Positions 14,785 to 27,892 of a DNA stretch of 64,000 nucleotides are shown here, piece after piece. Every line of letters starts with the position of its first letter. The first letter of the stretch is position 1. The notes beneath the pieces were generated by a model that saw only the letters and a list, made by a program, of their open reading frames with translations, was not told the DNA's origin and ran no database searches. The DNA is from an uncultured Bacteroidales bacterium (GTDB lineage Bacteria > Bacteroidota > Bacteroidia > Bacteroidales > G3-4614), in assembly GCA_949297125.1 (NCBI GenBank), contig CASFRS010000027.1, positions 1,812-65,811 of the forward strand, given 5' to 3'. A program made the translations under genes and the position numbers.

Positions 14785-15804
14785 ATGAAGAAAAGTTTTA
14801 CAAAAGTTTTGTTGGCGGCAGCAATGTTTTGTGTGTCGTCTGGCGCGTCAGCGTACGATTTTGAAGCGGGCGGGATTCATTACAATATTACGTCCGAAGC
14901 CGATAAAACCGTAGAGGTAACGTCCGGAGGGAATGGCTATGTCGGGGATGTTTCAATCCCCGCAACTGTGGAGAACGGGGGGACGATATACACCGTAACA
15001 GAGATAGGGAATTTCGCTTTTTCCTCTTGCAGCAGCCTCGTCTCTATTGATATTCCCGACGGAGTCAAGTCGATAGAGGTGGATGCTTTTTACAATTGCA
15101 TCAGCCTTGAGTCTGTAACGCTCGGCAGCGGATTAGAAACAATAGGCGATTATGCTTTTGAGTATTGCGAAAACCTTAAATCGATAAATATCCCCGACGG
15201 GGTAGTCTCGATAGGCGATTATGCTTTTGACGGATGCAGCAGCCTTACCTCCATCGATATTCCCGACGGAGTTGTTTCGTTAGGAGAAGGCGCTTTTTCC
15301 GGTTGCATCAGCCTCGAGTCGGTAACGCTCGGCAGCGAAGTAGAAACAATCGGCGATTATGCTTTTCACAATTGCAGCAATCTTGTAGAAATAAACTCCC
15401 TTGCAACTCTCCCCCCTGTATGCGCCATTATTGCCGGGGTATCCGTTTCATCTTGTTTTTCCGGTGTCGATAAAACTGCCTGTACGCTAAAAGTACCGGA
15501 AGGGACGGCCGACGATTACAGGGCAGCCGACGTCTGGAAAGAGTCCTTCAATATAGCGGAGACCGATTTTGCCGGAATCGGGGAGATTGCGGCCGATGCT
15601 GCGGCTGCCGCAAAGGTATACGCAGCCGCAGGGCGCATAGTTGTCGAAAACGCTGCGGCAGGTACGCCGATAGTCGTCTATACCGCCGACGGTGTACAGG
15701 TATACGGCGGTACGGCCTCCGACGGCCGAACAGAGATTCCCGCGCAGGCAGGGAAACTCTATATTGTAAGGTGTGGCAACGCGGCGTACAAAACGGCGAT
15801 GTAG
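14785..15804 (+). CDS. BspA-like leucine-rich-repeat (LRR_5/TpLRR) surface protein with T9SS-CTD-like C-terminus
   Basis: Signal peptide ending ASA-YDF; 23-aa repeats C..L.SI.IPDGV.SIG..AF; C-terminal GRIVVE..PIVVYTADG..GKLYIVRCGNAAYK. Confidence 0.9.
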   Translation: MKKSFTKVLLAAAMFCVSSGASAYDFEAGGIHYNITSEADKTVEVTSGGNGYVGDVSIPATVENGGTIYTVTEIGNFAFSSCSSLVSIDIPDGVKSIEVDAFYNCISLESVTLGSGLETIGDYAFEYCENLKSINIPDGVVSIGDYAFDGCSSLTSIDIPDGVVSLGEGAFSGCISLESVTLGSEVETIGDYAFHNCSNLVEINSLATLPPVCAIIAGVSVSSCFSGVDKTACTLKVPEGTADDYRAADVWKESFNIAETDFAGIGEIAADAAAAAKVYAAAGRIVVENAAAGTPIVVYTADGVQVYGGTASDGRTEIPAQAGKLYIVRCGNAAYKTAM

Positions 15805-17687: not shown

Positions 17688-18896
17688 TTATTTTTTAAAA
17701 AGAGTTTCAATAAAATCGTGTCCGGCAATGGTCCCGTATCCGCCGTTCCGTGCGCTCGATTCGTCATAGACGGTAACGTTGTCGGGTTCCTCCCCGGGTT
17801 TCCATATCACGAACGGTACGGCATCGCTCGAGTGTGTACGGATACGGCACGGCGTGGGGTGGTCGGGAAGCAGGGCGACAGTTACATCGTCGGGAATGGA
17901 CGGCAGGGCCTCCACAAGAGGTTTCAGTATGCGGTGGTCGAGGAACTCTATAGTCTTTTTCTTCAGCATGAAATCGCCCTCATGTCCTGCCTCGTCGCTC
18001 GCTTCCACGTGCAGGAATACGAAGTCGCACTCTTTCAGGGCATTTATTGCAGCTTCTGCTTTCCCTTCGTAGTTGGTGTCGAAAAGGCCTGTCGCCCCTT
18101 CCACTTCAATCGGTTTCAGACCAGCATATACCCCTATTCCCTTGATAAGGTCTACGGCGGAAATAACCGCACCGCTCCTTATGCCGTAGAGTTCGGAAAA
18201 GGTCTTCATCTTCGGTCTGTAACCGGGCGACCACGGCCAGATACTGTTTGCCGGGTCTTTTCCCTGGCTTATCCTTTTCAGGTTTACCGGGTGTCCGGGA
18301 AGCAGCTGTTGCGAAGCCAGAATCAGTTCGTTTATTCTCTCCGCCGTCCTGACTGCTTCTTCTGCGGCCGGCTTTACCAGCAGCGGCCCGAAGGGCTGGC
18401 CGGGAACATCGTGCGGCGGCGTGCAGACCAGACGCTTGTCGCCCCCTTTAAGTTTCAGCAGGTGTCTGTACGATATCCCTGCAAAAAAGTTGGCATCTAC
18501 GCCGCCGATCTCCTTTTGCAGGAAGCCTATGAGTTCTGCGGCCTCCTCGTCCGATATGTGTCCGGCCGAGTGGTTCTTTATCTTGCCGTCCTCTATACAT
18601 ATAAGGTTGCATCGCATGGCTATCTCCCCGTCTTCGATAGGGACGCCCATGCTCGCAGCTTCCAGCGAACCCCGTCCTTCGAACACTTCGTTCAGGTCGT
18701 AGCCGAGAATGGACAGGTTGGCCACCTCGCTGCCCGGCTTGAAACCTTCCGGAACGCTTTTGAGCATCCCGCTTTTCCCTTTTGCGGCAATCATGTCCAT
18801 AACAGGCTTGTCGGCAGCCTGCAGCGGCGTTTTGCCTCCGAGTTCCTTTATCGGTTCGTCGGCCATGCCGTCTCCCAATACTATAATATATTTCAT
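17688..18896 (-). CDS. apgM: Cofactor-independent phosphoglycerate mutase family (ApgM; proposed homoserine kinase substitute)
   Basis: LGDGMAD, PGSEVANL, HVEASDEAGH, PDHPTP metalloenzyme motifs; occupies the thrB position between thrA and thrC. Confidence 0.88.
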   Translation of the reverse strand: MKYIIVLGDGMADEPIKELGGKTPLQAADKPVMDMIAAKGKSGMLKSVPEGFKPGSEVANLSILGYDLNEVFEGRGSLEAASMGVPIEDGEIAMRCNLICIEDGKIKNHSAGHISDEEAAELIGFLQKEIGGVDANFFAGISYRHLLKLKGGDKRLVCTPPHDVPGQPFGPLLVKPAAEEAVRTAERINELILASQQLLPGHPVNLKRISQGKDPANSIWPWSPGYRPKMKTFSELYGIRSGAVISAVDLIKGIGVYAGLKPIEVEGATGLFDTNYEGKAEAAINALKECDFVFLHVEASDEAGHEGDFMLKKKTIEFLDHRILKPLVEALPSIPDDVTVALLPDHPTPCRIRTHSSDAVPFVIWKPGEEPDNVTVYDESSARNGGYGTIAGHDFIETLFKK

Positions 18897-18990
18897 CGCC
18901 AAATCAAAAAAAACATATCAAACAATTGCCCCGGAAATGCAGGGCCTAACCATAATCCTCAAAAAAACAGCGCCCCTACAGTACTTGCCG

Positions 18991-21426
18991 TCAGCGGATG
19001 TTGGCAATACTGATGATGTCGGCAAATACTCCCGCTGCCGTAACCGAAGCTCCGGCCCCGTATCCTTTTATAACCATCGGGTATTCCTTGTAGCGTTCGG
19101 TGGTTATCAGTATTACGTTGTTGCTCCCCTCCAGCTGGTAGAACGGGTGCGTGGCATCTACGGCCTGCAACCCCACGCTCATCTTCCCGTTGTCCAGTGA
19201 GGCTATGAAGCGGAGACGTTTGCCCTGTGCCGCAACTTCCCTGCGTCTGGCCTCGAACTCTTCGTCCAGACCCGGAATCTTTTCCCAGAACTCGTCGAGC
19301 GAGCCGGCAAAAAGTTCGTCCGGGATGAACAGGTGTTTCTCTACGTCCGACTGCTCGGCGACATACCCCGATTCCCGGGCCAGGATAACCAGTTTGCGGA
19401 TTACGTCCTGGCCGTTCAGGTCGAGGCGCGGGTCGGGTTCGCTGTAACCCGCCTCCTTTGCCATGCGTATCGCCTTGCTCAGAGGGATTTCTTCGCTCAG
19501 CGTGCTGAATATGTAGTTCAGCGTGCCCGATACCACCGCTTCGATGCGCAGTATCTTGTCCCCGCTGTTTATCAGCCCGTTTATAGTGCTTATTATCGGA
19601 AGCCCTGCTCCCACGTTGGTTTCAAAAAGATACTTGACATCCCTTTTGCGGGCCGTCAGCTTTAGGGCGGCATAGTTCTCGTACGATGACGATGCGGCTA
19701 TCTTGTTGGCTGCCACAACCGAAACGTTATGTTCGAGCAGTTCCTTGTAGATGCTTGCAATCTCGGCGCTTGCCGTGCAGTCGACAAAAACCGAGTTGAA
19801 GATATTCATCTTTATCACTTCGTCGCGGATGGTGTCGGCCGATGCCGCAAGAGGGGAGTTTTCAAGCAGTTCGTTGTAGTTGTCGAGCGATATGCCGTCT
19901 CTGCTGAATACGCACTTGCGCGAGTTGGCCAGCCCTACTATGTTCAGTTTGAGCGATTTGTCCCTCAGGAGGTTGGGCTGTTGCTGCCTGATTTGCATAA
20001 GCAGGTCTTTCCCTACCGTACCTATGCCCGTTATGAACAGGTTAAGTTCCTGTGCGTCCGACAGGAAGAACGAGTCGTGAATGACGTTCAGTGCCTTGCG
20101 CAGGCTTCCCAGCTCTATTACGAACGATATGTTGGTCTCCGAGGCCCCCTGGGCGCAGGCTATTACGCTTATGCCGTTGCGTCCCAGAATGTTGAACAGC
20201 TTTCCGGCGATACCGGGCGTGTGTTTCATGTTCTCGCCCACTATGGCGACGGTGGCAAGGTTGTGTTCGGCCTGGGCTTCGCAGATTTCGCCCATGGCTA
20301 TTTCGCGTTCAAACTCCTTGTTCAGCACCGATACGGCAAGTTCGGCATCGGCATTCCTTACTGCAAACGATATGTTGTTTTCCGATGCCGCCTGCGAAAC
20401 GAGGAATACGCTGACTCCCGATTTTGCCAAAGCGTTGAATATGCGCGAGTTTATCCCTATTACGCCAACCATGCCCAGTCCCGAAACCGTAATGAGGCAT
20501 GTGTCGTTTATCGATGAGATGCCCTTTATGGCCTTGGCCTCCCCGTCGGGTACTTTTTCCGTTATCAGCGTACCGGGAGCTTCGGGCTTGAACGTGTTCT
20601 TTATGACGATAGGGATGTTTTTGTGGTATACGGGGTATATGGTGGGCGGGTAAATCACCTTTGCGCCGAAGTTGCACAATTCCATCGCCTCTACAAACGA
20701 CAGCCGTTTGATAACGTACGAGGTCTTTATCGTGCGCGGGTCGGCCGTCATGAAGCCGTCCACGTCCGTCCAGATTTCAAGAAGCGAGGCGTTCAGTACC
20801 GATGCAAGTATAGAGGCCGTGTAGTCCGACCCTCCGCGCCCGAGGTTGGTTACGTCGCCGTTCTTCTTGTCCGACGAGATGAACCCCGGCACTACCGACA
20901 CCTTGGGGAGTTCGGTAAACGTGGAACGGACAAGCTCGCCTGTAGTCTCGAAGTCGACAATGTTCTTCCCAAACTGGTTTACGGTTTTTATAAAACGCCG
21001 CGAATCGAAAAGGACGGCATCCTTTATGATATTGCTTATTATGAACGATGAAAGCCGTTCGCCGTAGCTTACTATAGTATCGAGGGTTTTCTGCGAGAGA
21101 TCCTTGATAAGCGATACCCCGCGCATTATGTTGCCCAGTTCCTCCAGCAGGGCGTCGGTGTTTTCCAGTACCGAGCCGCGTATTTCCGGGGCGACGGCCC
21201 TGTCGATGACATCATGGTGCCGCGAAGCGATATACTCCATTATCTCCGTGTACGCACGTTCGCCTTTTGCGGCGGTTTTTGCACATTCAATAAGCTTGTC
21301 GGTAATGCCGCCGAGTGCCGATACGACAACTATGCACTCCTCATCGCGGCTTTCAACTATGTTTTTTACGCTTTTAATACTCTCGGCAGAGCCGACCGAA
21401 GTCCCTCCGAATTTAAGTACTTTCAT
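18991..21426 (-). CDS. thrA: Bifunctional aspartokinase / homoserine dehydrogenase I
   Basis: KFGGTSVG, LGRGGSDY, WTDVDG, two ACT domains, GIGTVG, ETNVGAGLP, GYGAGASVTA. Confidence 0.97.
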   Translation of the reverse strand: MKVLKFGGTSVGSAESIKSVKNIVESRDEECIVVVSALGGITDKLIECAKTAAKGERAYTEIMEYIASRHHDVIDRAVAPEIRGSVLENTDALLEELGNIMRGVSLIKDLSQKTLDTIVSYGERLSSFIISNIIKDAVLFDSRRFIKTVNQFGKNIVDFETTGELVRSTFTELPKVSVVPGFISSDKKNGDVTNLGRGGSDYTASILASVLNASLLEIWTDVDGFMTADPRTIKTSYVIKRLSFVEAMELCNFGAKVIYPPTIYPVYHKNIPIVIKNTFKPEAPGTLITEKVPDGEAKAIKGISSINDTCLITVSGLGMVGVIGINSRIFNALAKSGVSVFLVSQAASENNISFAVRNADAELAVSVLNKEFEREIAMGEICEAQAEHNLATVAIVGENMKHTPGIAGKLFNILGRNGISVIACAQGASETNISFVIELGSLRKALNVIHDSFFLSDAQELNLFITGIGTVGKDLLMQIRQQQPNLLRDKSLKLNIVGLANSRKCVFSRDGISLDNYNELLENSPLAASADTIRDEVIKMNIFNSVFVDCTASAEIASIYKELLEHNVSVVAANKIAASSSYENYAALKLTARKRDVKYLFETNVGAGLPIISTINGLINSGDKILRIEAVVSGTLNYIFSTLSEEIPLSKAIRMAKEAGYSEPDPRLDLNGQDVIRKLVILARESGYVAEQSDVEKHLFIPDELFAGSLDEFWEKIPGLDEEFEARRREVAAQGKRLRFIASLDNGKMSVGLQAVDATHPFYQLEGSNNVILITTERYKEYPMVIKGYGAGASVTAAGVFADIISIANIR

Positions 21427-21633
21427 AAAATTTCCCGGTTTAGTTATGGGGGGAAGCGGAAGAGTCGCTGAATTCCGGATAATACTCTGCTTTTCCCCGT
21501 GTATGTTCTAAAAATGCCTGCAAATCCCGGCCTCCCCGGCAGTACAGCGGAAACCGCTTTGCAGATTCTTGAAAATATCGCCGTCTTCATCGGGAACAGG
21601 CCTGTTTCCCGTATAAGGCGGAAGACGGAAATG

Positions 21634-21663
21634 AAAAAACACGCAACCCCCTAAGGGGTGGCG
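21634..21663 (-). terminator. Attenuator terminator of thr operon leader
   Basis: Minus strand CGCCACCCC-TTAG-GGGGTTGCG-TGTTTTTT, about 210 nt upstream of the thrA ATG. Confidence 0.75.
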
Positions 21664-21710
21664 GTCTGCACGGCAGTCAAAAAGAGCGTATTAAAAAACG
21701 AGGCTCCCAT
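21651..21710 (-). CDS. Putative thr operon leader peptide MGASFFNTLFLTAVQTATP (19 aa)
   Basis: ATG..TAG read manually; four Thr codons (ACG, ACT, ACC, ACC); stop codon lies in the terminator loop. Confidence 0.7.
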   Translation of the reverse strand: MGASFFNTLFLTAVQTATP

Positions 21711-21734
21711 AGTTATCCGAATAAATTACTCTTA

Positions 21735-21928
21735 TGCAGCTTGTTTCTGCAGTTCTACGGCAAAGATAATGCAAACGGGGGCAGAGACAAACCGTAAGGT
21801 TCGGCTATGCCGAGTGCAGCTTATTTTCGCCGTTCTACGGCAAAGATAATACAAACGGGGGCAGAAACAAACCGTAAGGTTAGGCTATGCCGAGTGCAGC
21901 TTATTTTCGCCGTTCTACGGCAAAGATA
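21735..21928 (-). repeat. 80-bp tandem repeat (about 2.4 copies), each full copy carrying a TTTG-N19-TATCTTTG promoter
   Basis: GTTCTACGGCAAAGATA at 21752, 21832 and 21912; units 21752-21831 and 21832-21911 differ at 3 of 80 positions. Confidence 0.95.
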
Positions 21929-22233
21929 GTAAAAAAATGCAACACCTGCTTATATGGCGCATTATATTTTCATCCTCTCTTGTCGCTTCCGTTTTCGCCG
22001 CAACCCGCCTGGCAGGGTTCGTGCCGCAATGGAAGCCTTTTCGTGCCCCCCGCTCTCCCTTCGTCGCCGTAAAACACGGTACCGGCGGGAGGTGTGGCGG
22101 CAAGGCTGCGCCGGTATGAAAAAACAATCCGGGACGTTCGCCTGTTATTGTCGCGTACGGGTTGTTCCCTGTCCGGAATATTTGTCCATATTATAAAAAA
22201 TAAGAAAAAAACGCCTTGTATTTGAAAAAAGTG

Positions 22234-22241
22234 TATCTTTG
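22234..22241 (+). promoter_or_regulatory. sigmaA -7 element TATCTTTG, about 310 nt upstream of winged-helix gene
   Basis: Consensus TAnnTTTG after an AT-rich tract. Confidence 0.65.
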
Positions 22242-22551
22242 CATCGGTTTTTCGAAAGGGAACTTGTTCTGATTGGTGAGATTGGGCCGGAAAGGCTCAT
22301 GACTGTGCTGGAGAAAAAGTCGAATAAATCTATATGCACAACAGAATAGACGAATACGATTCTACCATTGCGGTAGGCGTTTCCTGTTTGTGCATTAGGG
22401 GTCGACTCCCTCTCCGGCGAACGGGCAAAGGCCTGCCGCTTTTTTTGCGGCAAATGCGGAAGAAGGCCCTGCATGTAACGGAACTCCTGCCGGTGTCAGG
22501 CGGGGCGGAATTTGAAAAGGCTATAACAAACATATTTAAATAATTCTGATT

Positions 22552-22767
22552 ATGGATTTACAGAGTATTGGCGAAAGCGCCGGTGTAGTATGGAACCTGT
22601 TGGCTGCCGACAATAAGAAGATGGATTATCAGGAACTCAAAGAGGCTGCCGGTCTCAATGACAAAGATCTTTCGGCTGCAATAGGATGGCTTGCCCGCGA
22701 AGGCAAACTTCAGATATCCAACGAAAAGGTTGGCCGCAAGCAGGTAATGTATATCGAACTGGCCTGA
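22552..22767 (+). CDS. Small winged helix-turn-helix protein (DUF2582-like)
   Basis: IGESAGVVWNLL...AAIGWLAREGKL pattern typical of this Bacteroidales family. Confidence 0.85.
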   Translation: MDLQSIGESAGVVWNLLAADNKKMDYQELKEAAGLNDKDLSAAIGWLAREGKLQISNEKVGRKQVMYIELA

Positions 22768-22838
22768 TATCCGGAGCGGATATAAGATGTTGATAGCGTC
22801 CGCACCTGCAAGCGGCAGGTTTCGGACAAAATGTTACA

Positions 22839-22878
22839 GCAAGGGGATGCACGGTTTTTATCTGTACATCCCCTTGCT
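22839..22878. terminator. Inverted repeat between convergent genes
   Basis: AGCAAGGGGATG ... CATCCCCTTGCT. Confidence 0.6.
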
Positions 22879-22894
22879 GTATTAATGCGCTATC

Positions 22895-23839
22895 TTACTC
22901 GCCGCCGTGCCTGCCGGCAATGTTTGCGGCTATATGGGCGAACCACCCCTTTACCGCCTTTGAGGCCGTATCGCCCAGAATAATCAGGGTTACAGCCCCG
23001 ATTACAAGTATTACCCCCGCTGTGATTTTCGGAGTTATGGTTTCGTTGAACAGCATAACACCTATAACGAGGGCGGTAACGGGTTCGAGCGCACCGAGAA
23101 CGGCCGTAACCGTAGAACCTATGCGGTGAACGGCGGCCGTCATGCAGACGAGCGATACTATGGTCGGAAAAAACGCCATGGCGAAAAGCCTCAGTCCCGC
23201 ACCTGCGGAAGGAACAGGCTGGAGCGAAGCCAGGAAGTCGAGGCGGACGGCGTAGATTATAATCCCGAACAGCAGGGCGAACAGTGTCAGTTTGGCCGTA
23301 TGCAGCCTTTTCAGGGACGACTTGTTCACCCCCACTATATAAATGGCGTAGGAGAGCGATGAGAAAAGTACCAGTACAACGCCTGTCGTCGACACCGTGC
23401 CGCTCCCGTCGCCTTCGTAAAGCAGCAGGATTCCCGACAGGGCCAGTAAAATGCAGAGGATTCCGGTGAACGAAAGGCGTTCGTGGAAAAACAGGAACAT
23501 TATCAACGCCACCAGTATCGGGTAAACGAACAGTATGGTACAGGCAAGCCCGGCATCCATATACAGGAAGCTGAGGTAGAGAAAGAGCGAGGAGGCCGAG
23601 AACAGAAGCCCCATTACGGCTGTCGGGACGATATCCTTTCGGGGCAGGGAGAGGGGCTGCCGTTGCAGTTTCAGCAATACTGCCAGCAGGACAATGGCGA
23701 ATCCGTACCGGTAGAAAAGCACCGAATCGGGATTCATCCCCTCCTCGTACAGGGGCAGGGCAAAAAGCGGGTTCAATCCGTAGAATACGGCAGAAATAAT
23801 TCCGAGGACAATCCCCTCGGTCGTGCGCGACAGTTTCAT
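22895..23839 (-). CDS. DMT/EamA family transporter
   Basis: About 10 hydrophobic helices in two EamA halves; ILFVYP and LGALEPVTA motifs; ATG 23839 (MKLSRTT) chosen. Confidence 0.9.
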   Translation of the reverse strand: MKLSRTTEGIVLGIISAVFYGLNPLFALPLYEEGMNPDSVLFYRYGFAIVLLAVLLKLQRQPLSLPRKDIVPTAVMGLLFSASSLFLYLSFLYMDAGLACTILFVYPILVALIMFLFFHERLSFTGILCILLALSGILLLYEGDGSGTVSTTGVVLVLFSSLSYAIYIVGVNKSSLKRLHTAKLTLFALLFGIIIYAVRLDFLASLQPVPSAGAGLRLFAMAFFPTIVSLVCMTAAVHRIGSTVTAVLGALEPVTALVIGVMLFNETITPKITAGVILVIGAVTLIILGDTASKAVKGWFAHIAANIAGRHGGE

Positions 23840-23985
23840 AAAACGGCAGTTCTGGTAAAACGGTTGCAATCTTGGGCAAAACCATTCTGGCCTTGCCGTA
23901 TAACGCCAATGAAGTACTTGACGGATAAATCGGGCGCAAATATAATCCGTATGAAGTATATTTACGCGTTGAAAAAATCTAAAAA

Positions 23986-24618
23986 ATGCGAGTGGACAAA
24001 GCCCTGGAAGAATATGTCGAGACAGAAATAATACCGGCGTACCGGACATTCGACCCGGCACACGGCGAAGAGCATGTACGGCAGGTCGTAGCCGGAAGCC
24101 TGCGCCTTGCAGAGAGTTACGATGTGGACTGCAATATGGTATATGCAGCAGCTGCGTATCACGATTCCGGCCTGGCGGCCGGGAGAGAAAAGCACCATAT
24201 CGAATCGGGTCGGAAGATACGCGGGGACAGGAAACTGCTGCGGTGGTTCACCCCGGAACAGATTGAGACGATAGCGCAGGCTGCCGAGGACCACCGCGCC
24301 TCATCCGCCGCCGAACCGCGCACCATATACGGAAAGATAATTGCCGAAGCCGACCGAGACATTGAACCGGAGAAGATTCTGCGGCGTACCGTGCAGTACG
24401 GGCTGTCGGCTTACCCCGCTCTCTGCCGGGAAGGACACTACGGCCGTTACAAAAAACATCTGCTTGAAAAATATGCCGAAGGAGGCTATTTGAAACTTTG
24501 GGTCCCGGAGTCGGACAATGCAGCCAAACTCGAAGCGTTGCGCAGCATAATTGCCGACGAAACGGAACTGCGCAGGCAGTTCGACCGGATATTCACGGAT
24601 GAGACCTCCCGGCCCTGA
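23986..24618 (+). CDS. HD-domain metal-dependent phosphohydrolase
   Basis: DPAHG..H, AAAYHD, EDHRAS, IAEADR. Confidence 0.88.
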   Translation: MRVDKALEEYVETEIIPAYRTFDPAHGEEHVRQVVAGSLRLAESYDVDCNMVYAAAAYHDSGLAAGREKHHIESGRKIRGDRKLLRWFTPEQIETIAQAAEDHRASSAAEPRTIYGKIIAEADRDIEPEKILRRTVQYGLSAYPALCREGHYGRYKKHLLEKYAEGGYLKLWVPESDNAAKLEALRSIIADETELRRQFDRIFTDETSRP

Positions 24619-24730
24619 ATGCTGCCGTTCTGCAAGTGAAGCGGTAAAAAAACCGCGCGAAAGATGCCTCCGCGCGGTTATCTGTAAGGAGCGTGAGGGC
24701 AAGGGGGCATTCTCCGCCCTTGCCCGTCGC

Positions 24731-25393
24731 TTATTCCTGCATGCGTCTTTTAGCCTTCATCCTTTCCCGTATCACCTCCACCACGGCAGGGAGCAGCGAA
24801 ATGACTATTATGGCGAGCAGCAGCAGCTTCAGGTGCTTCTGAACAAATGGCAGGTCGCCGAACAAATAGCCTGCAAAGCAGAAAATCCCCACCCAGAGGG
24901 CTGCCCCCACAACATTGTAGAGCATAAAGTAGTAGTAGTGCATCCTCCCCATGCCGGCCACGAACGGGGCGAAAGTGCGGACAATGGGGACGAAGCGTGC
25001 AAGGATTATGGTTTTGCCGCCGTATTTCCTGAAGAATTCGTGCGTTTTGTCGAGGTAGCTTTGCTTGAATATCTTGGAGTCGGGGTTGCGGAACAGCTTC
25101 TTTCCGAAAAAATGCCCTATCATGTAGTTGCAGGAATCGCCCAGGACGGCTGCGGCAAAAATAATCAGCGACAGATACCATATGTCCAGCGGTATTTCGG
25201 GCAGGGCGGAGATTGCGCCTGCAACAAAAAGGAGCGAGTCGCCCGGGAGGAACGGGGTTACGACAAGCCCGGTCTCGCAAAATATTATAACGAACAATAT
25301 CGCGTACGTCCACAAGTGATAGTTCTGCACCAGTTCAATCATGTGCCTGTCTATGTGCAGGACAAAGTCGACGGCGTACTGAAAAATTTCCAT
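24731..25393 (-). CDS. dedA: DedA family membrane protein
   Basis: [37 protein letters not shown]. Confidence 0.93.
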
Positions 25394-25668
25394 AAGTGTG
25401 TCGGTATGTAATAAAGATGTAGCTGTAAAGAATAATAACGGTGTTTTTCTGTAACTGTGCTATTTAGTCCGAAAACAATGCAAAAATAGCATAAACCATG
25501 ACAGATGCAAAAAGCGCAGTACAAATTCTTCAGGCAACACCCCGTTTTACGTCCGCCGCATGCCGGGTGCTGTCCGTCGTCTCCCCCGGCATGTGCCGTG
25601 CTGCCCGTTTTTTGCATGCACAAGGCAGCAATTTTGGCGCAGAGTGCGGTTGTTTTCATTAAAATTAG

Positions 25669-25676
25669 TATCTTTG
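25669..25676 (+). promoter_or_regulatory. sigmaA -7 element for pnp
   Basis: TATCTTTG 30 nt before the pnp ATG. Confidence 0.65.
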
Positions 25677-25705
25677 CCTGATTTTTAGACGAAAGAGATA
25701 AGTAT

Positions 25706-27892
25706 ATGATTAATCCGATTAAGAAGACAATCGATTTGGGTGATGGACGGACCATTACCATTGAGACAGGCAAACTGGCCAAACAAGCCGACGGAGCGGT
25801 GGAAGTACGTATGGGAAACACCATGCTGCTGGCTACCGTAGTTGCTGCCAAGGAAGCAGGCGAAGGTGTCGATTTCATGCCTTTGCAAGTAGAATATAAA
25901 GAGAAGTACGCTTCGTTCGGGAGGTTTCCCGGCGGCTTTACAAAACGCGAGGGAAGGGCTTCCGATTCCGAAATCCTGACGGCGCGTCTTGTGGACAGGG
26001 CCTTGCGTCCCCTTTTTCCCGACAACTTCCATGCAGAGACATATGTAAACATAATAATGTTTTCGGCCGACGGAAAGGATATGCCCGACGCCCTTGCCGG
26101 GCTGGCCGCTTCCGCCGCGCTTGCCGTGTCGGACATACCGTTCAACGGGCCTATTTCCGAAGTTCGCGTAGCCCGTATAGACGGAGAGTTCAAGATAAAC
26201 CCCACATTCCAGGAACTGGAGCGTGCCGACATGGACCTTATGGTCGGCGCGACTATTGAAAACATAATGATGGTAGAGGGAGAGATGGACGAGGTTTCCG
26301 AACAGGACCTCCTGGCCGCCCTGAAGACCGCACACGAAGCCATAAAGGTGCAGTGCCGCGCGCAGCTTGAACTTGCCGAAGAGGTAGGCTCTACTGTAAA
26401 GCGCGAATATTGCCACGAACAGAACGACGAGGAACTTCGCAAGGACGTGCATGAAAAGTGCTATGACAAGGCCTATGCGATAGCCGCGTCGGGCAACGCC
26501 AACAAACATGCCCGCAGCGAAGCTTTCGATGCCATACTTGAAGAATACCTCGCTGCCATGCCCGAAGAGGAGAGGGCCGAAAAGGAGGGTATGGTAAAAC
26601 GCTATTACCACGATGTGGAAAAAGAGGCCATGCGCCGTTGCATCCTCGATGAAGGGAAACGTCTCGACGGCCGCAGCACCACACAGATACGCCCCATTTG
26701 GTGCGAGGTAGACTACCTCCCGGGTCCCCACGGTTCGGCGGTATTCACCCGCGGGGAGACACAGTCGCTTACAACCGTAACGCTCGGTACGAAACTCGAT
26801 GAAAAGATAGTGGACGACGTTCTTGACCAGTCGCACCTGCGTTTCCTGCTGCACTACAACTTCCCGCCGTTCTCCACGGGCGAGGCGAAGGCTTCGCGCG
26901 GAGTGGGACGCCGCGAAATAGGGCACGGGAATCTGGCCTGCCGCGCATTGAAGCGCATGATACCCGAGAACTATCCGTACGTTGTGCGCGTAGTCTCCGA
27001 CATACTTGAATCGAACGGCTCGTCCTCCATGGCTACCGTATGTGCCGGGACCCTTGCCCTTATGGATGCCGGCGTGAAGATAAAGAAACCCGTATCGGGC
27101 ATAGCCATGGGGCTCATAACCGACAACAAGAAGTACGCCGTACTCTCCGACATCCTCGGCGATGAAGACCACCTCGGCGACATGGACTTCAAGGTAACCG
27201 GTACAAAGGACGGAATTACCGCAACCCAGATGGACATAAAGGTTGACGGCCTGCCCTACGAAATACTCGAGAAGGCCCTTATGCAGGCGCACGAAGGGCG
27301 CATGCACATACTCGGGAAGATACTCGATACCATACCCGAGCCGCGTGCCGACCTCAAGCCCCATGCCCCGCGCATAGAGACCATGCTTATCCCCAAGGAT
27401 ATGATAGGCGCGGTTATAGGCCCGGGCGGAAAGATAATACAGGGAATACAGGAAGATACCGGGGCTATTGTAACGATAGACGAAGTGGAAGAAGGCGGGC
27501 ACATAGAGATAGCGGCTCCCTGCCGTTCGTCGATAGACGCGGCGATAGCCCGCATAAAGAGCATCGTTGCAATACCCGAAGAAGGCGAAGTCTACACGGG
27601 AAAAGTAAAATCCATTCTCGCATTCGGCGCCTTTGTGGAGTTTATGCCCGGCAAGGACGGTCTGTTGCATATCTCCGAAATATCCTGGAAACGTCTTGAA
27701 ACAATAGAGGAGTCGGGTCTCAAGGAAGGCGACGAGGTAACGGTAAAACTCCTTGAAATAGACAAGAAGACCGGCAAGTACCGGTTGTCCATGAAAGCCC
27801 TCCAGCCCAAGCCGGAATGGGCCGACGACAACCGCGAACGTCCCCGCCGTGCACCGCACTCCAATAACAACCGCAACAGGGACAAAGAGTAA
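25706..27892 (+). CDS. pnp: Polyribonucleotide nucleotidyltransferase
   Basis: [46 protein letters not shown] and S1 domains. Confidence 0.98.

Follow-up and report, generated by a model that had tools for sequence, protein, structure and literature searches.

The tandem array upstream of thrA

The 64-kb window (the whole stretch of DNA analysed, 64,000 nucleotides) belongs to an uncultured Bacteroidales bacterium whose genome, here called G000, comprises 2.14 Mb in 27 contigs and is 99.8% complete. On its minus strand lies thrA, for aspartokinase/homoserine dehydrogenase, preceded by 2.3 nearly identical 80-nt units, head to tail at 21735–21928, which Tandem Repeats Finder (TRF) reports as a single array at 21735–21935 (period 80, 2.5 copies, 92% matches, score 339). 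The array probably consists of locally stacked copies of a palindromic repeat of Bacteroidales that is non-autonomous and carries a promoter, and the small hairpin-forming repeats to which it belongs make up a family in gut Bacteroidales that is large and apparently undescribed and unnamed.

The regularity of the array had been noticed in a first-pass annotation, and re-reading the sequence bears it out: a 17-mer stands at 21752, 21832, and 21912, exactly 80 nt apart, copies of TGCAGCTT lie at 21735, 21815, and 21895, and the stretches 21752–21831 and 21832–21911 differ only at 21771, 21786, and 21802. The copies at 21815 and 21895 of the 34 nt at 21735–21768 are identical to each other, and both differ from that stretch at four positions. 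That each full unit brings its own −33 box also holds. On the minus strand TTTG-N19-TATCTTTG occurs once per full unit, at 21761–21791 and 21841–21871, and these are the only two matches in the window (0.00 expected, 100 shuffles); both agree with the Bacteroidetes sigma-A consensus of −7 TAnnTTTG and −33 TTTG, as quoted in PMC7366714. The outermost TATCTTTG box, at 21921–21928, is missing from the pattern matches and hence, as had been remarked, has no TTTG at the N19 spacing.

Read in the direction of transcription, a unit consists of a short hairpin H1, an “anti-box” resembling CGAAGATAA, an invariant block CTCGGCATA, a second hairpin H2 whose 3′ arm contains the −33 TTTG, an invariant spacer TCTGCNCTCG, and a terminal box, which matches the sigma-A −7 consensus TAnnTTTG in most lineages. 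Across 110 units from many genera the blocks CTCGGCATA and TCTGCNCTCG do not vary, in contrast to the remainder of the unit. At the junction between the two window units, a local hairpin is predicted in which the box at 21841–21848 and the 5′ arm of H1 pair with the 3′ arm of H1 and the anti-box at 21821–21829.

Table 1. Features of the thrA region, in window coordinates (MFE, minimum free energy; ORF, open reading frame).
Feature	Position	Strand	Remarks
Ancestral (distal) thr promoter −7 box, TATCTTTG	21921..21928	−	Repeat starts at the adjoining downstream base, 21920
Repeat unit 1, 80 nt	21841..21920	−	H1, anti-box, conserved CTCGGCATA block, H2, spacer, own box; from unit alignment, sequence, TRF, and pattern search
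Unit 1, H2	21868..21883	−	Holds −33 TTTG, 21868–21871
Unit 1, own box	21841..21848	−	
Repeat unit 2, 80 nt	21761..21840	−	Three differences from unit 1; predicted gene-proximal complete promoter
Unit 2, H2	21788..21803	−	−33 TTTG, 21788–21791
Unit 2, own box	21761..21768	−	
Terminal 26-nt partial unit (L module)	21735..21760	−	Degenerate H1 and anti-box, ending ...AAGCTGCA
Local hairpin at unit junction	21815..21855	−	MFE −11.9 kcal/mol, z −2.53
Thr-rich leader peptide ORF	21651..21710	−	19 codons, Thr codons near the end; read from the sequence
G+C hairpin and T run after leader ORF	~21630–21660	−	
thrA, aspartokinase/homoserine dehydrogenase	18991..21426	−	Pfam AA_kinase, ACT, Homoserine_dh; gene served by the array

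A dispersed repeat in front of unrelated genes

Used as a query, the 201-nt array matches 47 places in G000, and BLAST with a single 80-nt unit yields 82 segments, which group into 43 arrays, units at different loci being 85–100% identical over 80 nt. A superfamily profile search of the genome finds 107 units in 57 arrays of 1 to ~6 units each. The dispersal that the first-pass annotation had proposed is thus confirmed, with the unit at 56 places besides thrA. A one-off replication slippage of the thr promoter would produce a perfect head-to-tail 80-nt register of nearly identical copies, as is seen here; it is refuted by the 47 matches of the array, by the 56 other places in G000, and by the presence of the unit in other genera, and retains virtually no probability.

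The arrays are associated with promoters, again as had been claimed. Of the 54 with a callable downstream gene, 52 point at it, mostly from 20–200 nt before the start codon (the other three of the 57, at contig ends, have no scorable downstream gene), and in ~38 of the 57 a strict TAnnTTTG is the exact end of the array, after which unique sequence begins. Pfam matches (E ≤ 1e-5) were obtained for 48 of the 51 downstream ORFs scanned, thrA having been scanned separately; they include amidase, glycosylase, fucosidase, prolidase, GMP synthase, gyrase/topoisomerase subunits, dehydroquinase, and DNA polymerase III tau, as well as TonB receptors, ETF, YchF, acetolactate synthase, HtrA, and a sigma-54 activator. 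The genes behind the arrays have unrelated housekeeping functions and form no coherent regulon. The same arrangement is found at long-flank loci of other genomes, where a sense ORF begins 10–147 nt after the array in 12/12 cases, 11 of these ORFs having at least 130 aa. They replaced the 200-nt flanks of named records, where a test for open frames in all six frames was uninformative, both strands being open in 50 of 80. Three other readings were dropped: a CRISPR, there being no spacers; a regulon, the downstream genes being heterogeneous; and a coding repeat, the arrays being intergenic.

Unit length in G000 ranges from 73 to 86 nt and three subfamilies can be told apart: A, of 80–81 nt, the type found at thrA; B, of 84–86 nt; and C, of 73–76 nt, with an 80-nt variant at G000:C4:40538. 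Subfamilies are mixed within one promoter at G000:C10:8234–8677, C7:19–328, and C2:20731–20991, in each of which C units are followed by one A unit. The family also breaks the G000 assembly, since six arrays lie at contig ends (G000:C27:2–218, C18:1–230, C7:19–328, C11:15032–15264, C4:128233–128381, and C16:13860–14015), and in contigs from sequencing runs the summed word depth over the array is 20–60 times that of the flanks.

Insertion immediately after the −7 box

The closest species, G004, has coding DNA ~78–88% identical to that of G000 at the loci compared. At all six informative loci it has an empty site, the upstream region and the −7 box being conserved in both species: thrA, dnaX (G000:C7:14414), a fucosidase gene (C1:97458), a nagB-like gene (C10:26252), ETF (C8:101958), and the tsaB-like side of C4:40538. 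The repeat in G000 starts in every case at the base right after the native box (...TTTG; ...CTTTG), in agreement with the earlier suggestion that the element inserts at promoter −7 boxes. Because a sense insertion is placed directly 3′ of the resident −7 box, the gene keeps a complete −33/−7 promoter, now at the 3′ end of the element. At thrA the leader resumes, in a MAFFT alignment, 2–3 nt after the G004 box TACCTTTG and, in G000, directly after the 26-nt L module; the G000 box at 21921–21928 was taken as the counterpart of TACCTTTG by eye, from short shared motifs, the upstream sequence being unaligned by MAFFT. The yicC side of the C4 locus is ambiguous, as insertion of whole units could equally lie on either side of the box there.

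The 3′ end of the inserted DNA falls into several classes. Most often it lies after the box; at the nagB-like locus it lies after ...GCAT, with no final box; at thrA, dnaX, ETF, and the tsaB-like gene, and also at C2:20877, it comprises the box and 26 nt more, ending ...GCTGC(A); and at C1:88563 and C3:71262, the box and 45–50 nt. Isolated “box + 26 nt” modules exist as well, for example at G000:C8:119483–119517, and could be the footprints of loss through recombination between 26-nt direct repeats.

Two elements of the earlier proposal have to be replaced in this light. It had the insertion duplicate a target made up of the −7 box and the transcription start site, and the boxes at both ends of the element do resemble an 8-nt duplication of the kind made by a DDE transposase, yet the 3′ ends vary, the 3′ box in some lineages is not TAnnTTTG, and this box covaries with the internal inverted anti-box (see below); it therefore probably belongs to the element rather than being a duplicated target. 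Likewise, what had been described as a degenerate 34-nt duplication bounding the array is instead a recurrent 26-nt terminal module, present at other loci too.

Arrays of different subfamilies also meet at two further loci. At G000:C4:40144–40696 the divergent yicC-like and tsaB-like promoters carry back-to-back arrays of different subfamilies, the spacer measuring 722 nt, as against 297 nt in G004. Elsewhere, what is the same gene by 5′-end similarity carries arrays of different subfamilies in the two species (G000:C23:76721–76890 and G004 L025:1415–1760), which could reflect an insertion hot spot or the turnover of an old array.

The terminal box lies in a covarying hairpin

Across 84 units from ~80 named loci, changes at the four variable positions of the terminal box are matched by changes in a complementary word ~55 nt upstream. 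In Prevotella records the box GTAACTTTG is accompanied by GAAGTTAC, in Alistipes records GTATCTTTG by AGATAC, in G000 TTATCTTTG by CGAAGATAA, and in one metagenome-assembled genome (MAG) GCGACTTTG by GAAGTCGC. The box variant tracks lineage, with TAACTTTG in records titled Prevotella and TATCTTTG in G000 and Alistipes. Without any alignment, 57 of 142 units have, within the 30 nt preceding CTCGGCATA, the exact reverse complement of the first 7 nt of their own box, and 112 of 142 have at least 6/7 of it; controls with a mismatched box class gave means of 3.5 (maximum 10) and 35 (maximum 52), respectively. In an alignment of 110 sequences, the 9-bp helix of box and anti-box is 84.2% paired, with changes on both sides in five of its nine pairs (pair 15–96, for example, is A–U in 63 sequences, U–A in 28, C–G in 3, and G–C in 3). 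The covariation score of the whole 12-pair structure is 0.194 vs 0.101 in shuffles, a value reached by 0/500 shuffles, and slid controls gave 0.044–0.134. The box, in essence, lies in a conserved, covarying hairpin stem. A second proposed stem, TGC:GCA (columns 21–23 with 90–92), is unsupported, being paired in 50.6%.

Within arrays, the anti-box could pair just as well, by way of H1, with the box before it. The resulting local box–H1–anti-box hairpin averages z −3.43 over 88 distinct fragments, 70 of which have z ≤ −2; stability is greater on the sense strand in 64 fragments and on the antisense strand in 23. At pair 11–100, opposite the third T of TTTG, a G·U pair stands in 65 sequences and A–U in 3; the wobble would preserve the sense-strand stem and at the same time deny the other strand a consensus −7 box. 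H2, which was judged without alignment, the MAFFT alignment not being structural there, is palindromic in nearly all of its 38 distinct versions despite their very different sequences (mean z −1.69), and shows no strand bias across these 38 segments.

Stems of this kind may act in RNA. A structured 5′-leader or small-RNA module, working at the RNA level and spread by ordinary recombination, with the promoter-likeness of the box secondary, is an unlikely alternative, and one that does not exclude the mobile repeat that we favour. Since insertion is between the −7 box and the expected start site, the units would be transcribed from the native promoter, and transcripts from the resident box would begin with the unit hairpins, which might stabilise or process the mRNA. 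The covarying stems, the G·U wobble, and the greater stability of the sense strand all agree with this. At G000:C4:40538–40696 the internal boxes are all non-consensus (TGCCTTTG), so that the 2.4 units there could only be leader. An RNA-library contig (21200–21782) runs from the start of thrA through the whole leader and past the proximal box by 14 nt, an extent that is compatible with, and no proof of, read-through from an upstream box. Against a leader stand the absence of any Rfam covariance-model match at E ≤ 1 in window positions 18000–26000, the lack of strand asymmetry in H2, and whole-unit folds of the two window units that are unexceptional (z −1.65 and −0.70). Nor does it give a reason for a unit that ends exactly on a spaced −33/−7 pair, or explain the arrival of units at 57 unrelated promoters.

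The invariance of CTCGGCATA and TCTGCNCTCG in units that otherwise vary, together with the TGCNCTCG-like words which both blocks hold ~three helical turns apart, would also suit a conserved promoter architecture bound by a protein, such as a global regulator or nucleoid protein, the module then being a regulon signature and not mobile DNA. We think this distinctly improbable: the sister species differ in presence and absence at 6/6 loci, tandem copy number runs from 1 to ~6, the downstream genes have no common function, the module is absent from the thrA upstream regions of other Bacteroidales (below), and the covariation of the stem argues for base pairing rather than sequence-specific recognition of box and anti-box.

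Distribution in Bacteroidales and in other strains

The first-pass annotation had suggested similar sequences in Prevotella and Bacteroides, and related copies do exist in Prevotella, Alistipes, Barnesiella, and other Bacteroidales. A module pattern composed of CTCGGCATA, a gap, TCTGCNCTCG, a gap, and CTTTG matched 14 of the 401 Bacteroidales genomes searched, belonging to 8 of 236 genera, with 41 matches in G000 and 1–10 in each of the others; the reversed pattern gave 0 matches in the same 401 genomes. In named records the pattern is found in at least 121 stretches, and the record titles among the matches listed include Alistipes, Prevotella/Prevotellaceae, Barnesiella, Muribaculaceae, Bacteroidaceae, and several Candidatus genera. 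The distribution across Bacteroidales is patchy. The A-type unit is nearly species-specific (3 of 41 genomes searched, G000 included), and C-like units number at least 20 in G004 itself. The pattern had no match among 2.9 million viral contigs. A typical unit in a record titled Oscillibacter, a Firmicute (L209), may be a binning contaminant, and a match in a record titled proteobacterium (L158) looks like chance.

None of 80 thrA upstream regions from other Bacteroidales (ThrA identity 57–70%) contains a unit, whereas the positive control gave 95 matches in G000; the insertion at thrA is therefore lineage-specific. A search of metagenome contigs with the ThrA N-terminus for strains of the same species found at best a match 70% identical. 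The sequencing runs in which the window is found are metagenomes from chicken gut or faeces. In two independent chicken-gut DNA runs (X5 and X6), flank contigs ~98% identical to the window, with 9–13 differences per 500–600 nt, enter the array from both sides, reaching to 21800 and starting from 21900, and the array at thrA is thus present in other strains. Copy number in these strains is not readable from Logan contigs, whose assembly from 31-letter words breaks off within the array.

Other features of the window

The Thr-rich leader ORF, the hairpin, and the T run downstream of the repeat likely form a thr attenuator, to judge from the sequence. This region is native, lies outside the repeat, and is conserved in G004; Thr-rich short ORFs occur upstream of thrA in 33 of 80 other Bacteroidales loci, several of them ending ...TPRG or ...TTTTTTTPAGV. 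On the far side of the array, a consensus TATCTTTG box at 22234–22241 (+) faces away from thrA, and an RNA-library contig starts at 22255; short ORFs at 22255–22400 have no Pfam match, and the region may be a small RNA or small protein gene. RNA-library run X18 gave no cover at 21938–22225, where the DNA runs were covered, and we do not take this as evidence of a start site.

Tandem repeats of 69 and 138 nt, degenerate at ~67–78% matching, are found in the window at 15142–15284 (G000:C27:16953–17095) and elsewhere at G000:C10:58948–60066 and C11:917–1238; we have assumed them to be coding repeats. Outside the window, G000:C3:89686–90643 holds a period-66 tandem array (13.5 copies, 68% matches) whose conserved and variable parts are CRISPR-like.

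Discussion

The evidence set out above supports the idea of a promoter-regenerating element in outline. A palindromic, promoter-regenerating repeat family describes it better than an element that duplicates its target, and the mobile repeat remains the reading that we favour. Several observations weigh against it. The empty sites come from one sister species and six loci, and the gene calls in G000, on which the orientation count depends, were made with our own simple and crude codon-usage model. The heterogeneous 3′ ends are untidy for a site-specific transposase, and the similarity of units within a genome could in part be due to gene conversion rather than recent movement. Furthermore, the internal boxes of subfamilies B and C are one base short, the gene-proximal box being perfect, and in some lineages among the 84 units from named loci the terminal box is not TAnnTTTG. 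Promoter function is for these reasons not universal, and it is the inverted repeat ending in CTTTG that emerges as the primary conserved feature, while promoter quality looks like a selected, position-dependent property.

The search for a mobilising enzyme, which covered Y1, Y2, and TnpB-type transposase domains, also tells against this reading. No mobilising enzyme was found with these domains, and no longer, gene-carrying version of the element was seen. Pfam Y1_Tnp, which comprises the IS200/IS605 TnpA and the RAYTs, matched in 0 of 6 carrier genomes, including G000 and one single-contig genome, as against 6 of 14 reference genomes used as a control. Y2_Tnp had no match, and none in its control either, and is uninformative; one match to a TnpB-type domain lies below the cut-off. 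These results bear on an element moved by an HUH transposase, be it a REP/REPIN served by a RAYT or an IS200/IS605-derived palindrome that inserts 3′ of a short target. The subterminal hairpins, the strand-specific wobbles in the stems, and the precise left junction 3′ of ...CTTTG, a word repeated at the 3′ end of the element, are all in keeping with such a transposase. With the Y1 domain that defines these systems absent from the six carriers searched, no match among the viral contigs, and right ends that are not uniform, we disfavour it as very improbable. The first-pass annotation had given neither a named family nor a mobilising enzyme for the repeat, and Rfam, Y1_Tnp, and the literature likewise gave none; we found no description of the family in the literature searched, whose scope excluded subscription-only papers and supplements.

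As to mechanism, we infer that the boxes of the units fire as promoters and that new copies arise by a strand-specific event at the box. Two routes might lead there. Some hairpin-recognising recombinase or nuclease could act by an integron- or HUH-like logic, or the replication fork could switch templates between promoters, primed by the 8–9-nt homology of the boxes, aided by the hairpin, and resolved at microhomology. A precise 5′ junction at an 8–9-nt word repeated at the 3′ end, a variable 3′ end, and arrays of n-plus-fraction units in register are compatible with both. Arrays would then lengthen through further insertion at the regenerated box or through unequal recombination. A more specific scheme, which might be called “promoter-homing”, is speculative and in our view rather unlikely: the 5′ anti-box would pair with the melted or single-stranded −7 box of any sigma-A promoter, and a hairpin-specific enzyme or the replisome would attach the element within the stem, right after ...TTTG, in the manner of an integron cassette at attI, except that any housekeeping promoter could receive it. 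With a fresh box at the end of the element, insertion would on this scheme heal itself and could be repeated, and head-to-tail stacks would result.

Among known systems, the class of putative mobile promoters is the nearest concept, and Correia elements, REP/REPINs, and BrickBuilt are the nearest defined elements. REP and REPIN sequences are short imperfect palindromes, conserved through covariation, clustered in non-coding DNA, and present in many copies per genome. The repeat described here is likewise built of imperfect palindromic units of conserved structure, kept by covariation, clustered, and present in many copies; unlike REP/REPINs, its units stand head to tail rather than alternating, lie at promoters and not at gene ends, and are accompanied by a RAYT or Y1 gene in none of the six carrier genomes searched. 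Integron attC sites fold as single strands into hairpins conserved in structure rather than in sequence, recombine by a crossover inside the stem, and insert directionally beside a promoter, giving head-to-tail cassettes from one platform per genome, with intI and attI. Hairpin sites, directionality, and stacking would be shared with the repeat; unlike in integrons, the targets here are 57 separate promoters, and there is no linked integrase.

Putative mobile promoters are an operational class, defined by an identity of 80% or more along 50 nt or more in the region −150 to −50 (Nijveen, Matus-Garcia and van Passel 2012, PMC3575422). Units that are 85–100% identical over 80 nt in front of unrelated genes fall within this definition, and further likenesses are highly similar non-coding sequence upstream of unrelated genes, both within a genome and across genera, an unsettled route of mobilisation, and no Rfam match (PMC3575422). 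Unlike that class, the family here is a defined element, with a unit anatomy, insertion right after the −7 box, tandem stacking, and a covarying hairpin. The same paper lists REP/REPIN-BIME with RAYT among promoter-bearing mobile elements (PMC3575422). Correia elements of Neisseria are longer, of the MITE type (miniature transposable elements with inverted repeats), first described at 204 bp, and carry sigma-70-like promoters in either orientation; like the repeat here, they are small, non-coding, inverted at their ends, and found mostly upstream of genes, and they carry promoters and form RNA hairpins that affect transcripts, a further likeness (PMC10969869). The terminal inverted repeats of a MITE are present here as anti-box and box, a covarying inverted repeat of 7–9 bp. 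Our repeat departs from Correia elements in being 73–86 nt long, head to tail, and sense-oriented (52/54), and in having the −7 box itself as inverted repeat. BrickBuilt, a MITE of Porphyromonas gingivalis, has 23-nt bricks between a long leader and tail, IS5-like inverted ends, and bidirectional promoters (PMC4596501). It too is an intergenic repeat of Bacteroidales with internal tandem units and, in its own case, promoter activity, and its authors discuss it as a possible mobile promoter (PMC4596501). Unlike BrickBuilt, the unit here, ~80 nt (73–86 nt), has no flanking leader or tail and no IS-like ends that we recognised, and its orientation is fixed.

What is new in this element is that the −7 box covaries with an inverted anti-box, which places the box in a conserved stem. 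Promoter-motif surveys and comparative analyses of 5′ untranslated regions in Bacteroidales can be dominated by one repeat family, and caution is warranted there. If our reading is true, the family would account for some of the assembly breaks in MAGs of these taxa, and it would offer compact natural promoter cassettes of graded copy number for engineering in Bacteroides, Prevotella, and Alistipes. The long-suspected “mobile promoter” phenomenon would gain a concrete, dissectable case, with a defined insertion point and a testable structure. A sizeable share of the housekeeping promoters in some gut Bacteroidales, in G000 those of thrA, dnaX, guaA, gyrase/topoisomerase genes, and htrA among them, would then not be vertically inherited; they would have been remade from one shared cassette that spreads and has the −7 box itself for its inverted repeat.

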